From Tolypothrix carrinoi HA7290-LM1 (GTDB lineage Bacteria > Cyanobacteriota > Cyanobacteriia > Cyanobacteriales > Nostocaceae), in NCBI GenBank assembly GCA_019358935.1, contig JAHHIK010000013.1, positions 38,007-102,006 on the forward strand: a stretch of DNA of 64,000 nt, given 5' to 3'. The notes beneath the pieces are model-generated. The model searched no databases, was not told the DNA's origin, and was given only the letters and a program-made list of their open reading frames with translations. Position numbers and translations under genes: made by a program. Shown in pieces: positions 1,861-29,604 of this stretch (position 1 is the first letter of the stretch; each line of letters starts with the position of its first letter).

Positions 1861-2045
1861 GATGGGTTGTTGGAAGGGGACAAGGGGACAAGGGCGACGG
1901 GCGTGGGGAGTTTGTCTCCTCATCTCCTTCCATCTCCCCATTTCCCAAAACCTAAAGAGATACAGAATTAATCTTGCTTGGCAAAAAATTCCTGCTAACT
2001 TACAGATAACTACTTAAGATTCAAATATCTTTCTATTAGGGGTAT

Positions 2046-2164
2046 AAAGTTAAAAGTTAGGAGTTAAAAGTTAAGAATTAGGAGTTGGGAATTCTTAATA
2101 ACTCTTAACTCATAACTCATGACTCATAACTCATCACTTTTAACTCCTAACTCTTAACTCCTAA
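2046..2164. repeat. STRR heptamer array (TTAGGAG / TAACTCA) in inverted arrangement
   Basis: Tandem heptamers followed by their reverse complements between convergent exbD and psb29. Confidence 0.8.
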
Positions 2165-2872
2165 TTATTCGTTGATAGATGGAGGAGTAACTTTAGTTGT
2201 TGATTGCTGTAAACGTTGTTCGCGTTTTTTGCGATCGGCTGAAAGCATATCTGCCATAACTACTAGTGCTTGCGCCATTTTATCTAGATTAGAACGGTAT
2301 AGATCCAAATCTTTAGTGAGTTTGTCATCAGATAAATGTAAGCCACTAGCAACGCTTTTCAGTGCTTCAGTGCGCTGTTTTTCATCTTTGACTAATTCTG
2401 GATCTGACAGTTCTAATAAAGAAAATAAACCGATCGCAAACAAACGGCTATATTTAAAATTAGGATTGTTAGCGATCGCTAGGAGTTGTTCAGCTAAGTC
2501 AGCATCTCGATCCGTAGGAGTCGTTTGGCTTAACCACCCAATTAAATCTTTTGATGGTAAGCTTTGCGCTAAAGCCTGCAAACGGTGTGCATCTTGTTTA
2601 TAACGTTGCGGATCTTCCTCTATAGCCTGACACAGGGCATTAAAAATTGACTCTTTATCTTGTTCTGGCAGATAGCCTTGCATGAAGCGGTCGAATGTAG
2701 TGACGACGCCCAAGGCATAAATTGGATTGTAGCTAAAATCGGCATTCACTGACAGCAGATGCATTTCTACCATCAGTTCTTCCACCACTCGACGATAAAT
2801 AGTATTTATCGGGCGCGTGTGGCGGTTATAGAATGTTCGCTTTGTATCAGAGACAGTACGGACGTTATTCAC
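2165..2872 (-). CDS. psb29: Photosystem II biogenesis protein Psb29/THF1
   Basis: TVSDTKRTFY...IYRRVVEELMVEMHLL and YSRLFAIGLF signatures. Confidence 0.95.
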   Translation of the reverse strand: MNNVRTVSDTKRTFYNRHTRPINTIYRRVVEELMVEMHLLSVNADFSYNPIYALGVVTTFDRFMQGYLPEQDKESIFNALCQAIEEDPQRYKQDAHRLQALAQSLPSKDLIGWLSQTTPTDRDADLAEQLLAIANNPNFKYSRLFAIGLFSLLELSDPELVKDEKQRTEALKSVASGLHLSDDKLTKDLDLYRSNLDKMAQALVVMADMLSADRKKREQRLQQSTTKVTPPSINE

Positions 2873-3064
2873 AAAGAAAATCTTTTGGGCGACGTATCTT
2901 TATTCTCTCGCTTCACGGCAACTTTGCCAAGTTGAGGTTTACACAAGTATTGACTGCTTGATTTGCGTTTTGGACAATTATCTTTTAACACACCACAAGA
3001 GTTGGGAATCCTCAGCTGGACAAAACTATGCAAAAATTATGATACGTCATAATTGTGCATCAAT

Positions 3065-3655
3065 ATGAGCTTCTCGCCACAGTTAACTGCCTTAGCTGAA
3101 TATTTGGCTGGTGAATTTGATAATCGCGCTCAAGCTTTAGCCGATCCAGCTTGGTATGTTCACTTACGAATGTGGCAAAGACCTGTTGCTTTATTTTCAG
3201 AAGACAGTTTTACCCTGTTTGCTGAACAAGCCAATGTTCTTAAATTAGATCAGCCTTACCGTCAGCGAATTATGCGCTTACAGCAAAAAGGTGACGCTGA
3301 TGCTATCCAAGTCCAATATTATATGCCTAAAGATCCAGACGCCTTAAAATGCGCTGGTCAAAACCCCGCTTTACTTAATACCCTGACACCAGACCAATTA
3401 AATTTACTACCAGGCTGCATCCTTTCTGTTACGCAGCAAGAAATAAGTCCCAATTGCTACAAATTTACAGCGACTGCACCGCCAGACACTCGCTGTTGCT
3501 TTACTTATAGTGGCAATACCATCCAAGTATCCTTAGGGTTTGAAGCCACTAAAAACGAATTTTATAGCTACGACAAAGGAATTGATCCGGAAGGAAAAGC
3601 AACTTGGGGAGCGATTATGGGTCCTTATCGCTACACCAAACAAAATCAATTATGA
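3065..3655 (+). CDS. cpcT: CpcT/CpeT phycobiliprotein chromophore lyase
   Basis: LAGEFDNRAQA, PYRQR, SYDKGID...TWG motifs. Confidence 0.85.
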   Translation: MSFSPQLTALAEYLAGEFDNRAQALADPAWYVHLRMWQRPVALFSEDSFTLFAEQANVLKLDQPYRQRIMRLQQKGDADAIQVQYYMPKDPDALKCAGQNPALLNTLTPDQLNLLPGCILSVTQQEISPNCYKFTATAPPDTRCCFTYSGNTIQVSLGFEATKNEFYSYDKGIDPEGKATWGAIMGPYRYTKQNQL

Positions 3656-3790
3656 GTTAGGAGTTAGGAGTTAGGAGTTAGGAGTTATGAGTTAGGAGTT
3701 ATGAGTTAGGAGTTATGAGTTATTTAATTAACTCCTCACTCCTCACTTTTAACTCTTAACTTTTTTAAGATCACTCTTAACTTCTAACTT
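3652..3790. repeat. STRR heptamer array (GAGTTAG/GAGTTAT then TAACTC-like)
   Basis: Visible tandem heptamers between convergent genes. Confidence 0.8.
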
Positions 3791-3795
3791 CTTTT

Positions 3796-4164
3796 TTAGC
3801 TTGCGATGCTGCGAGGTACACCTTCTAAAGCTTCCTCTTCAGTTTCAAAGATTTCAAAGACTGTATCCATCATCGTCACTTCAAACACCAGTTTTGCTTC
3901 TGGATGTACATTACAGATGCGGAAACTACCTTTTACTTTATCAGCATCACGCATCCCCGCGACTAAAGATGTCAAACCAGAACTATCAATAAAATTCACT
4001 CCTCCGAGATTAACAACTACATGGCGACTCAGTTTGGAGATACATTCCTGTAACTTCAAGCGAAATTGCCAAGCTGTGGTAATATCTAGGCGACCGGATG
4101 GAGTTAAGACAATAACGATATTGCCATCTTGAGTTGTATAAGTTTTTTGATCTATATGAATCAC
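3796..4164 (-). CDS. STAS-domain anti-sigma factor antagonist
   Basis: SGRLD and VNFIDSSGL motif with the phosphorylatable Ser. Confidence 0.9.
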   Translation of the reverse strand: MIHIDQKTYTTQDGNIVIVLTPSGRLDITTAWQFRLKLQECISKLSRHVVVNLGGVNFIDSSGLTSLVAGMRDADKVKGSFRICNVHPEAKLVFEVTMMDTVFEIFETEEEALEGVPRSIAS

Positions 4165-4435
4165 GCTCGCCTCCCGTTGGCGCTGCTGTCAAATTGACAT
4201 CGGCTGTATTTAGCGTTGGACTAGTGAGCCAAAAGATTTTTTAAAAGTAATCTTTATCACTTTGCTACTGATACACAGTTTAGAAGCTGATAGTGAAATA
4301 GTTGGCTCACCAATTGAAAAAAAACGTCCAATGCTTATGCTTGAGATTAACAAGCAACAGCCAAAACTGTCACTTTTTTTTGCTAAGTGCTTTCTTTTAG
4401 TAGTTTAACTCACCAAAAGAGTGCTGAACGGAAAG

Positions 4436-4640
4436 TCGGGAGTGGGGAGTGGGGAGTGGGGAGTAGGGAATGGGGGGAGTGGGGGACAAAAAGACAAGGG
4501 GGACTCCTTGGAGACAAGGAGGACAAGGGGGATAAGGAGACAAGGAGATAATTAACTCCTAACAACTAACAACTAACAACTAACAACTAACTCCGTGCCT
4601 CCGTGCCTCCGTGCCTCCGTGCCTCCGTGCCTCCGTGCCT
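4436..4640. repeat. Compound tandem repeats (GGGGAGT, AACAACT heptamers; CTCCGTGC octamer x6 at 4591-4638)
   Basis: Directly visible. Confidence 0.85.
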
Positions 4641-4642
4641 CT

Positions 4643-5689
4643 CTACTCAGCACTGTGGTTTGGTGTCCAGTTTGCCCAATCTTGAGGTTTAAGAAAGGTT
4701 TCATATAACTCAGCTTCGGGGGAATTAGGTTCTGGCTGATAGCCGTATTCCCAGCGCACTAGGGGAGGTAAAGACATGAGAATAGATTCGGTGCGTCCGT
4801 TGGTTTGCAGACCAAAAATAGTGCCTCGGTCATAAACCAAGTTAAATTCTACATACCGACCCCGACGATAAAGTTGAAAATTCCGTTGGCGATCGCCATA
4901 TTCTGTATTATGTCGCCGTTCAACAATTGGCACGTAAGATGGTAAAAATGCATTACCACATTCTTGCACAAAAGTAAATAATTCTTCCCAACTGCGTGAT
5001 TCTGGCGCACCTAGCTGATTGCTGTAAATAGCCGCCTCACCATCTGGATGGGGACCGCGATATAATTCACCTTCACCATGTTGGTAATCAAAAAATAGAC
5101 CACCTACACCCCGCGTTTCTCCGCGATGCTTGAGGTAGAAATATTCATCACACCAGCGCTTAAACACTTGATAATATTCTGAGTGATGCTTATCACATGC
5201 TCCTTTGATAGTTTGATGAAAATGTGCTGCATCTTCAGCGAACGGGTAATAAGGAGTTAAATCCGCACCGCCACCAAACCACCACACCGGACCTGCTTCA
5301 AAATAACGATAATTGAGGTGAACAGTTGGCACGTAAGGGTTACGAGGATGTAACACCATTGAAGTACCCGTAGCATACCAGCGGTGTCCTTCTGCGTCTG
5401 GGCGTTGGGTTAAAATAGAGGGTGGTAGGTGTTCTCCCCAAACTTCAGAAAAACCGACACCAGCTTGTTCAAAGATTGCACCCTCACGCATAACACGCGA
5501 TCGCCCTCCACCTCCTTCTGGACGTTCCCAACTATCTTGTTGGAACTTACCCACACCATCCACGTCTTCCAGGGTTTGAGCAATTTTGTCCTGCAACTGT
5601 TTCATAAACTGACTCACCCTAGCCTTAGCGTCAGCTGGCGGTAAAGACTTAGATGATTCGGTTTGGCGATGAAGCGAGTTGGTCAACAT
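4643..5689 (-). CDS. hemF: Oxygen-dependent coproporphyrinogen III oxidase
   Basis: [44 protein letters not shown]. Confidence 0.95.
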
Positions 5690-26927: not shown

Positions 26928-27042
26928 TTTTTGTAGATGCACTTTTAGCCGACATAAGGGTAACTCTTTTTTGGTAGGAATGGGCAGTGGGGAATTGGGC
27001 CCTATCGCATGGGGCATAGGGCATAGGGCATGGGGCATGGGG

Positions 27043-27146
27043 GAGGCAGTGCGTTGCGGAGGTCACGAACGTTGTAGCACCTGCCGTCATGGGGCATGGG
27101 GGAGGCAGTGCGTTGCGGAGGTCACGAACGTTGTAGCACCTGCCGT
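27043..27146 (+). mobile_element. Two identical 45-nt small dispersed elements (27043-27087, 27102-27146)
   Basis: GAGGCAGTGCGTTGCGGAGGTCACGAACGTTGTAGCACCTGCCGT twice within GGGGCAT repeats. Confidence 0.7.
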
Positions 27147-27241
27147 CATTGGGCATGGAAATTCTGAAACTTATTTTTATTCCCCTTTCCCTTTTCCCCT
27201 TTCCCAATGCCCATTGCCCAATGCTCAATTCCCCTTTATAT

Positions 27242-27316
27242 AAAAAAAGCCCTCTTGCTAGTTACCCGACAAGAGAGCAGAAGTGTTCTGTGAGGAGCAA
27301 ACTGGACGTTTGCTTA
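27242..27316 (-). ncRNA. Candidate Yfr1-like small RNA, copy 1
   Basis: 5' hairpin AGCAAAC/GTTTGCT, linker CTCCTCACAGAACAC, terminator GCTCTCTTG/CAAGAGGGC plus T7; TAAACT -10-like box upstream. Confidence 0.55.
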
Positions 27317-27500
27317 ACATAAGTTTAGCGAAAGAATGAGATAGGCGAGCAATTATTTTGAGCGATCGCCTTGCCAACCTGAGAAAGCCTATGGTGGAAA
27401 TGCGATTCTTGAGGAATTCGTAGTAAGCGTTTCCCCAGTCCCTAATCCCCAGTCCCCAGTATCCTAACAGTTGTACATCTTCATCAAAGGAACCCAACAA

Positions 27501-28367
27501 ATGACAATGACGCTTATCCAGGGCAACTTTAGAATCGTAAAAACTGCACCTGATGGCGATTCTATCCGCTTTTATCCCCACAACCCCGAATTGTGGAAGA
27601 AATTGCAGACACCAGTCAGCACCAACCGCTCAGGAGGTGCCCAGCTGCGTTTGGATGCGATCGATGCTTTGGAAACACATTATCGCCCGAAAATGGGTAG
27701 TATAGGCATACAACACCAACCTGCGGAATTTGCTGATGCTGCTGCCGGCGAACTGTTAAAATTTTTGGGATTTCAAAATGTTACCCGTGGTTCCAATCAA
27801 GTAATTACTGCCGCAGAACCCGAAGAAATACCTGGTTTCATCCTCACCCGTTTTGCAGACACGTATGGCAGAGCTGTAGCTTTTGTTTTTAAAGGCAATT
27901 CCGAAGAAGAAGATGGCAGCAACATTCACTTTGACAAATCTTTACTAAAAAAGAGCGCAAATTCTCATCTCTTAGCTAAAGGGTTAGTTTACCCTACCTT
28001 TTACTCGAAGTTATATCCTGATATTCGCAAGCAATTAATTGCTGTCACCGAAAAAGCCCGTAGTGATAAAAAGGGTTTATGGGCATCAGATAAAACTAAT
28101 AAAGGTTTTCTCTTGGAAGAGTTAGAAACTATCACCGACAAAGTTGTTATTTTACCAAAACTGTTTCGCCGACTGCTTGATTATCTCGGTATTAATGATG
28201 GTAGTGTAGCTCTAGACGGATTTATCAGCTTTCTGGAATCTAAGAAAGATAAAGTGATAATTCTCCCAGATAGTCATGTTACCGGATTTGATTTTGTGGT
28301 GAAAGTCGATGGTCAAAATATCAAATTAACTGTTCAACCTGAAGATTTAGTTTTTATGGAGAAATAA
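27501..28367 (+). CDS. Thermonuclease (SNase-like) family protein
   Basis: PDGDSIRF, LRLDAIDALE, DTYGRAVAFV motifs. Confidence 0.75.
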   Translation: MTMTLIQGNFRIVKTAPDGDSIRFYPHNPELWKKLQTPVSTNRSGGAQLRLDAIDALETHYRPKMGSIGIQHQPAEFADAAAGELLKFLGFQNVTRGSNQVITAAEPEEIPGFILTRFADTYGRAVAFVFKGNSEEEDGSNIHFDKSLLKKSANSHLLAKGLVYPTFYSKLYPDIRKQLIAVTEKARSDKKGLWASDKTNKGFLLEELETITDKVVILPKLFRRLLDYLGINDGSVALDGFISFLESKKDKVIILPDSHVTGFDFVVKVDGQNIKLTVQPEDLVFMEK

Positions 28368-28407
28368 ATATAGCAATCCCCAAACCTGAGAAACCCGGTT
28401 TCTCAAA

Positions 28408-28923
28408 TTAATCAAAAGTATCAATAATACAGTGAGAGATATGGGCATCGAATCTACTTAAAGCATTCCATGTCCGATATCCAATGATGCCGTTGGGTTG
28501 TTGATAGCGCGATGCCTGAAAAGCTTGTATTGCTTCAGTTGTTTTCGCGCCAAAGATGCCATCGACTTCACCAGAATAATATTTACCATTTTTCAGTGCG
28601 TGCTGAACTGCTTTCACCAGGGAACCGCTACTTCCTTGACTTAATTCTGGCAGACTATTTGCACCTTCACACAAATATGCCCAGGTATTTTTTCCGACAA
28701 TACCATCTGTTTTGAGGAAGGCAAGACACTGAAAATATTTAACAGCATCTTGGGTTTGTTCTTCAAAGTGACTTGTGACAAGAACTTGTAGAGGATAATC
28801 TGATAAAGTATCCAGTTCTGCAAGCCGCTGGTTTAATGCTTTTTGCATTTCTTTGACAAATTGACTACTTGCACCTAATTGCAAGGTAGGTCGATTGGTA
28901 GGACATTTAATTGCAGTAGACAT
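28408..28923 (-). CDS. Peptidoglycan-binding domain protein (two PG_binding_1 repeats)
   Basis: VKEMQKAL...DGIVGKNTW and VDGIFGAKTTEAIQAFQ...NGIIGYRTW. Confidence 0.85.
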   Translation of the reverse strand: MSTAIKCPTNRPTLQLGASSQFVKEMQKALNQRLAELDTLSDYPLQVLVTSHFEEQTQDAVKYFQCLAFLKTDGIVGKNTWAYLCEGANSLPELSQGSSGSLVKAVQHALKNGKYYSGEVDGIFGAKTTEAIQAFQASRYQQPNGIIGYRTWNALSRFDAHISHCIIDTFD

Positions 28924-29113
28924 CCTCTGTAATTCTCTTTAAATATTTGTTGGTTACAGAATAAATTCAAACAATTCAACACGGATTACGGAATCCGATG
29001 AGTATTATTTTGAAAATAAGGAAAAAGCGAAAAATTAGGCGATATTTATGGTGATTAATTGCCATAAATATCTTTCCTTCTTTTTATACCAGTAATATAG
29101 TAACTTTGGACAC

Positions 29114-29188
29114 AAAAAAAACTCTCTTATTATTTACTTAACAAGAGAGCAACGGTATGGTGTGAGGACGAAACTAATGTTTTCGTTA
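29114..29188 (-). ncRNA. Candidate Yfr1-like small RNA, copy 2
   Basis: 5' hairpin ACGAAA/TTTCGT, linker TCCTCACACCATAC, terminator GCTCTCTTGTTA/TAATAAGAGAGT plus T run; colinear homology to copy 1. Confidence 0.55.
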
Positions 29189-29323
29189 ATACCAGCGTCC
29201 AGCAGGCGATATGTTCGCGTAGCGTCTCCGCAAGGAGAAGGTTGAGTGACAATCTTGTGACAATCCTGCGTAGAAGAGGAGGGGGGGAGTGGGGGATGGG
29301 GAGAGGGGGGACGCATAAAGGTA

Positions 29324-29488: not shown

Positions 29489-29590
29489 GGGATGGGGAGA
29501 CAAGGAAGACAAGGGAGACAAGGAAGACGAAAAGACAAACTCCTCTGCCCCCTGCCCCCTGCAAGAGTGCCCCCTGCAAGAGTGCCCCCT
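29489..29590. repeat. GACAAGG-type repeat plus 15-bp CCCCCTGCAAGAGTG units; inverted copy at 33185-33285
   Basis: 55-nt perfect reverse-complement match between 29489-29543 and 33231-33285. Confidence 0.85.
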
Positions 29591-29604
29591 CTTAAAAAAG
29601 CCCA

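Follow-up and report, generated by a model that had tools for sequence, protein, structure and literature searches.

Two related units, predicted sRNAs, at the locus

The window analyzed here is a 64,000-nt stretch of contig JAHHIK010000013.1 from Tolypothrix carrinoi HA7290-LM1. Within it, two short units on the minus strand, copies A and B, bracket a pair of protein-coding genes (Table 1). The domain matches agree with the initial annotation that the enclosed pair encodes an SNase-like nuclease and a peptidoglycan (PG)-binding protein; the nuclease has no match in PADLOC or NCBIfam. Upstream of the bracket lies an M16 peptidase gene, and downstream of it are an amino-acid ABC binding/permease gene, the gene for its ATPase and an acyltransferase gene. 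Short tandem repeats and a unit of ~60 bp repeated twice occupy window positions 27000–27240, 27430–27460 and 29490–29600, where many spurious ORFs are found.

Table 1. Features of the bracketed region (window positions, strand in parentheses)
Feature	Position	Description
Copy B, predicted 73-nt sRNA	27242..27314 (-)	7-bp 5′ hairpin, 17-nt linker, intrinsic terminator
-10 box of B	27322..27327 (-)	TAAACT, 7 nt before the predicted start; identical in all 11 genus B copies
SNase-domain protein, 288 aa	27501..28367 (+)	PF00565, E 1.5e-6; transcribed away from B
Protein with two PG_binding_1 domains, 171 aa	28408..28923 (-)	PF01471, E 2e-27
Extended -10-like box behind the A terminator	29082..29091 (-)	present in all 9 genus loci listed (one with a base change)
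Copy A	29114..29186 (-)	layout as B; two pairs swapped in the 5′ stem; seed CCUCACACCAUAC of ancestral type
Promoter region of A	29194..29263 (-)	GACGCT at the -10 position instead of TAA(A/G)CT

Both units are 73 nt long when placed by homology to the transcription start site (TSS) row for Nostoc sp. PCC 7120, so that the 5′ end of each falls 2 nt inside the limit given in the initial annotation. Its description of the units is otherwise borne out: they share a two-hairpin layout, their stems differ with pairing kept, and their seed flanks differ. The 5′ stem is ACGAAA/TTTCGT in A and AGCAAAC/GTTTGCT in B, the swap amounting to two G-C/C-G pair exchanges. A linker with TCCTCACA is common to both, that of B carrying the altered seed CCUCACAGAACAC, and the terminator stem reads GCTCTCTTG...AAGAG(A/G)G followed by a T run. 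The predicted fold of both comprises a hairpin of 6–7 bp, an unpaired linker and a terminator stem followed by a U run, with z-scores of -4.42 (A) and -4.88 (B), and none of 200 shuffles folds as well as either unit. A and B are 68% identical, and in a BLAST search of the genome each is the only notable match of the other (74% over 62 nt, E 2e-4); they are therefore not the dispersed repeat that would have spoken against the proposal of the initial annotation. The GA change in B permits a marginal mini-hairpin in the linker (window 27289–27278, centroid fold), which is weakened or broken in four relatives.

A sigma-70 consensus scan gave no signal above chance, and that scan also missed the terminator of B. 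Two RNA runs, X1 and X2, are uninformative: their contig-level cover is thin and comes from related DNA (shares 0.08 and 0.06), with none over the bin that holds B.

Relation to Yfr1 and to an RNA listed for PCC 7120

A and B are diverged copies of a conserved two-hairpin family of heterocyst-forming cyanobacteria, that of PCC 7120 TSS 2515196r, and are not Yfr1. The initial annotation had called them Yfr1 paralogs. The part of this claim that stands is the presence of structured, paralogous sRNA-like genes that carry the Yfr1 core motif and are separate from the canonical gene; assignment to Yfr1 itself does not, as an Rfam scan of the window returned nothing relevant and the Yfr1 model (RF01116, membership threshold 38 bits) matched neither unit at the gathering score or at E<=10. 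A genome search with the same model, in which 150 of 642 candidates were scored, located a single copy over the cut-off, on contig C18 at 61.8 bits. This is neither A nor B but the canonical yfr1, lying between the IMPDH (guaB) and thioredoxin (trxA) genes, the position described in PMC2190773.

Yfr1 is defined there by two stem-loops with 16–20 unpaired nt between them (PMC2190773). A and B resemble it in this layout, with 17 nt of linker in the consensus structure around a UCCUCACA core, and in their predicted pairing with envelope-gene leaders and with Yfr2. The invariant Yfr1 11-mer ACUCCUCACAC, in contrast, is matched at only 9 of 11 positions by A and at 9 of 11 by B, and its four exact genomic copies are on other contigs. 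The stem sequences are unrelated, and the Yfr2-pairing extension is folded into the 5′ stem in the family to which A and B belong. This family also lies away from guaB–trxA, is restricted in range and coexists with a true yfr1. Descent of A and B from Yfr1 is plausible.

Although the initial annotation regarded the arrangement as undescribed, the family has already been published: a predicted sRNA of 63 nt, at TSS 2515196r, is an entry in Table S3 of PMC4734099, with 159 dRNA-seq reads (10 and 6 in the wild type, 96 and 47 in a hetR mutant, which hint at hetR dependence) and 19 homologs, 18 of them in heterocystous strains; the entry is a TSS-plus-terminator prediction, and its table row notes no validation. 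By a count of the table columns, Scyton_2349 is among the homologs; a B-type copy (L184) is found in its named record. The same RNA is named among Yfr1-motif-bearing RNAs and grouped with Yfr10-like RNAs in PMC6778093, which is the only place where a literature search found the label '2515196r'; within the scope of that search, which stops at subscription journals and image supplements, no functional study appeared. The family is without an Rfam model.

Compared by eye, the first 34 nt of the 2515196r RNA are the same as in the L057 copy; of these positions, B shares 26 and A shares 25. A and B share with this RNA the 5′ hairpin, the core, the linker length and the terminator layout. They differ in that the present genome has two copies, of which one shows a seed change restricted to the genus and the other has stem pairs swapped. 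The hairpin AG(C/U)AAAC/GUUUGCU followed by CCUCACA is exact in B and carries two compensatory swaps in A. The CCAYAC seed extension is present in A, and B has GA at its first two positions. B has both its own -10 box and an intrinsic terminator; A has the terminator, and its -10 box is mutated here. NsrR1, considered as a match, belongs to a different TSS (2050703f).

Further RNAs with the Yfr1 motif are Yfr10, Yfr12 and Yfr18 of Prochlorococcus and SyR5 of Synechocystis, the motif of Yfr12 being mutated; Yfr10 is bound by Yfr2, and its targets are described as partly different (PMC2518516, PMC6778093). By description, A and B are likewise additional RNAs with this motif, although the Yfr10 motif sits in a loop and Yfr10 adjoins yfr2 genes. 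A further Yfr1-motif unit with a terminator is found in this genome on the minus strand of contig C61 near 33489 (L172), upstream of a zinc-dehydrogenase gene. It resembles units in L120 and L133–L135 and the RNA at PCC 7120 TSS 3750139f.

Distribution and covariation

An exact pattern matches 77 of 151 family-sample genomes, with 6 control matches; L039 and L054, where the inspected loci are without a terminator, were dropped. The starting pattern demanded the stem arm and the core, so that conservation at those positions is partly built in. A covariance search beyond Yfr1, proposed in the initial annotation, bears out a widespread family: a model built from 41 copies matches 11 of 11 genus genomes and, when 33 candidates are scored in each genome, 99 of the 150 genomes of the family sample at E<=1e-3 (weak matches including a related motif family) and 92 of the 150 at E<=1e-6. 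In the phylum sample 8 of 150 genomes are matched, all from the same family or from two others of the order (three matches in those two). Model R1 scores A at 75 bits and B at 83 bits, R1 itself having been built using copy B.

Covariation, whose absence would have spoken against the initial annotation, is found. In the 41-row alignment 94% of cells are paired, compared with 41–54% in slid controls, and the model-fitted alignment of 87 rows gives 93%. Nine of 18 pairs changed on both sides in the smaller alignment, and 0 of 500 shuffles came out as high, with the caveat that related sequences can beat pair shuffles without structure. In this alignment the double changes in the 5′ stem come from the A lineage alone.

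For the neighborhood and promoter comparisons, 55 copies outside the genus were taken from the 87 model matches after dropping 21–22 genus rows and 10–11 non-genus rows. The latter comprise the related motif family (L120, L133, two rows each of L134 and L135) and weak or G051 rows (L101, two of L115, L116 and one L114 row). Local expansions are seen in G005, with three copies (L126), in G051, with six model matches (L114–L117), and in G080, where a tandem pair lies 233 nt apart (L121).

Promoters and the state of each copy

The motif TAnnnT stands 6–8 nt upstream of all 55 outside copies, against a background of 14% at other offsets, and weaker repeats ~11–12 nt apart occur further upstream. 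We take this spacing to resemble that of response-regulator direct repeats. TTGTCAC-like direct repeats ~11 nt apart precede A and many family copies and are absent before B, a difference that suggests different regulation of the two.

The seed change in B from CC to GA is found in 11 of 11 genus genomes, at positions that hold C in 36 of 40 and 40 of 40 of the outside copies counted. Among the species genomes scanned, the B-type seed occurs in only nine records, from Tolypothrix, Hassallia, Spirirestis, Plectonema radiosum, [Scytonema hofmanni] UTEX 2349 and uncultured material. Seven of the 11 genus genomes have a full-length copy A, five of them with an intact -10 box; A is cut to its 3′ part in G002, G004 and G006 and was not found in one genus genome that is 54% complete. 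In the present genome, a repeat-derived insert of ~25 bp (29238–29214) parts the -10 position of A from two TTGTCAC boxes (29263–29246). Judged by its sequence, the promoter of A is likely damaged here, and A is likely a decaying copy in this genome.

Should both units be decaying sRNA genes of which only the terminators still matter? The three truncated A copies, the damaged promoter and the alteration of B at an otherwise invariant seed base point in that direction. Against it, all 11 genus genomes share one and the same -10 box, 5′ stem and 20-nt stem-arm-plus-seed block in B, between flanks that vary. B also has no other transcript to terminate, its upstream gene being directed away from it. 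The terminator of A also stands behind the upstream M16 peptidase gene. We regard decay of both units as improbable.

The enclosed genes and downstream neighbors

The initial annotation proposed two roles for the bracket, an sRNA-bounded module and a pair of leader attenuators for the PG-binding gene and the ABC operon. A mobile or co-regulated nuclease/PG-binding cassette with A and B as its ends is suggested by the order A-PG-nuclease-B, which is conserved in most of the genus, and by a copy that adjoins the nuclease in G023, a genome of another genus. Synteny argues against it. Within 1.5 kb of the 55 outside copies, M16 is found 14 times, the acyltransferase 10 times, ABC genes 3 times, the nuclease once and the PG gene never. 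An unrelated 5-kb block (two-component system, membrane proteins) lies inside the bracket in G001 and an unrelated 14-kb block (glycosyltransferase cluster) in G006, and in G011 the nuclease adjoins M16 without any unit. Moreover, the copies are only 68% identical, viral contigs gave 0 matches, and PADLOC found no defense-family match. The cassette is thus highly improbable and the reading already largely refuted. The neighbor counts imply that the family moves and duplicates around the M16/ABC/acyltransferase neighborhood, and the enclosed nuclease and PG genes are likely incidental, neighbors left by local duplication and insertion.

The second proposal, in which each unit, as a promoter with a terminator, controls how much transcription continues into what lies behind it (the PG gene for A, the amino-acid ABC operon for B), would fit the fact that both units face a downstream gene. 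Other arrangements are also in keeping with it: in G005 the binding-protein gene begins ~70 nt behind the B terminator, and the next gene is on the same strand for 30 of the 55 outside copies. The next gene is convergent, however, for 22 of the 55 (it was not seen for the other 3), and B is unaltered where its downstream neighbor has been replaced (L010, L014). The terminators show no competing fold, with a predicted pairing probability of 0.98 for A and of 0.87–0.88 for B (folded one base short) that does not depend on added upstream sequence. Neither an alternative anti-terminator fold nor a fixed same-strand downstream gene, the two marks of an attenuator, is found for A or B. The PG gene, finally, has an extended -10-like box behind A, which is kept in two genus loci whose A has lost its 5′ part and is likely the gene's own promoter. 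Attenuation by A and B is accordingly quite improbable. An AT-rich palindrome of 32 nt (window 29072–29041), partly kept in the genus, lies between this box and the PG start.

Copies that may have taken such a route are found elsewhere. About a dozen genomes of other genera (L102–L113 and L119; for example, L104:3385-3458 + and L109:3155-3228 -) have copies with a degenerate seed, intact hairpins and a -10 box. They precede the M16 peptidase gene, mostly 40–50 nt ahead of its start codon, a placement in keeping with the attenuator reading. Their predicted pairing to leaders and to Yfr2 is weak, and they may have turned into a promoter or leader.

Predicted mRNA targets

The complement of the core occurs in 27 leaders compared with 5 coding windows among 6055 ORFs, and many of these leaders belong to secreted or outer-membrane proteins; the enrichment partly reflects the likeness of the sequence to a Shine-Dalgarno sequence. 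Target scores, computed with RNAduplex and RNAcofold from roughly assigned ORF starts, are noisy. For A, pairing at -15 to -22 kcal/mol is predicted with the leaders of MurC, two OprB porins and TonB receptors. Porins, MurC and TonB receptors are target classes validated for Yfr1 in PMC6974561.

Mean predicted binding over eight leaders (MurC, two porins, Omp85, two TonB receptors, a secretin and a TolC-type protein) is -16.2 kcal/mol for A, -14.9 for the ancestral copy of G005, -18.2 for Yfr1 and -10.0 for B, these leaders having been picked from top lists, which biases the comparison against B. When 40 leaders are selected only for the shared core, the means lie close together, at -10.3 (A), -9.5 (ancestral), -10.8 (Yfr1) and -8.8 (B). 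Pattern searches of leaders in the genome and the genus found no conserved B-specific target. Among single candidates, an 11-nt match in a C85 leader did not recur in the same form when the genus was searched with the pattern, and two C80 matches (12–13 nt) lie on the non-coding strand of a TPR gene, with only three scattered extra matches in five relatives. The neighbors were rejected as targets, the PG, nuclease, M16 and binding-protein leaders ranking 1920–5622 of 6598. A class D beta-lactamase-like gene elsewhere in this genome (G000:C23, L166:737-1591 -; NF012161, 281 bits) has a leader with a complement of the Yfr1 core.

Predicted pairing with Yfr2 and proposed function

The Yfr2 of this genome, on contig C64, has a free 5′ tail of 14 nt that is complementary without mismatch (one G-U) to B and to ancestral copies, and pairing with this tail is predicted to open their 5′ stem. 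Yfr1 pairs with the tail with one mismatch and A with two. Yfr2-type 5′ ends are present in 150 of 151 family-sample genomes.

The reading that we favor, with moderate confidence, is that A and B are paralogous copies of a Nostocaceae-centered two-hairpin family, independently transcribed as trans-acting sRNAs of ~73 nt that damp envelope mRNAs and are neutralized by Yfr2, with B expressed, A weak and the neighboring genes incidental. The UCCUCAC core, predicted to be kept unpaired by the two hairpins, would pair with GUGAGGA-type ribosome-binding regions of mRNAs for porins, TonB receptors, a secretin and MurC. Such pairing would damp their translation, as with Yfr1. Binding of Yfr2 to this core, with invasion of the 5′ stem, would neutralize the RNAs. 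B is likely the copy expressed here, with part of the mRNA-pairing extension lost; A is likely weak or silent and partly kept as a terminator behind the M16 gene. The mode of action of A and B is likely similar to that of Yfr1 or Yfr10. With its CCUC core Yfr1 represses envelope mRNAs; it is bound by Yfr2 in gel shifts and is constitutive in Nostoc, and Yfr2 has been proposed as a modulator of the Yfr1 cell-wall regulon (PMC6974561).

A second widespread family with the Yfr1 motif, often duplicated and equipped with a repeat-box promoter of its own and natural variants of the seed, provides a means of varying the Yfr1 network from lineage to lineage. The ready-made variants (A, B, ancestral and M16-linked) suit tests of how seed flanks relate to targets and to Yfr2 sensitivity. 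The gene pair between A and B contributes nothing to this significance.

A further possibility, which we consider rather unlikely, is a division of labor: B would serve as a decoy, sequestering Yfr2 and so releasing Yfr1, and repression of mRNAs would remain with A, which Yfr2 would reach only in part. In B the 14-nt block complementary to Yfr2 is retained and the two bases that directly follow it are altered, one of which is the same in all 40 outside copies counted. Its predicted binding to the murC leader is -9.0 kcal/mol, compared with -22.0 for A and -22.8 for the ancestral copy, and strong pairings (below -14) over the 40 core-chosen leaders number 2–3 for six B copies, 4–6 for 16 ancestral copies, 3–10 for five A copies and 10 for Yfr1. 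The mean energies over those leaders are, however, close for B, ancestral copies and A, as given above.

The decoy reading depends on where Yfr2 begins. With a U start, the predicted binding is -16.6 for B and -13.4 for A, in favor of a decoy. If Yfr2 starts at G, one base earlier, which promoter spacing makes likely, A (-16.4) and B (-16.6) tie, and both fall below the ancestral copies (-20.4) and Yfr1 (-21.2). In addition, three of the 11 genus genomes have a truncated A, in the 54%-complete fourth no A was found, and in two more its -10 box is missing; a Yfr2 with the matching C also exists in lineages where the family was not found. A clean split of labor between A and B is therefore not robust.

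In its extended form, which we hold to be rather unlikely, this proposal makes the family a Nostocales-evolved partner of Yfr2, with the core as toehold and Yfr2 unzipping the 5′ stem over 14 nt. After duplication in the genus, B would have become an anti-sponge that titrates Yfr2 and so tunes the Yfr1 cell-wall regulon, and A would have kept mRNA repression. If true, this would be a third tier of sRNA–sRNA control in heterocyst-forming cyanobacteria, reached by seed divergence.

Two observations concern Yfr2 itself. The relatives G001, G003, G005, G006 and G009 have 2–5 tandem Yfr2 copies besides the single conserved one, and the present assembly holds only the latter; its tandem array is either lost or unassembled. 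On contig C32 near 20109 (L174), the intergenic sequence TGTGTGAGGAGC resembles the 5′ end of Yfr2 without the Yfr2 loop and, on the other strand, stands just upstream of a 422-aa gene without a Pfam match.
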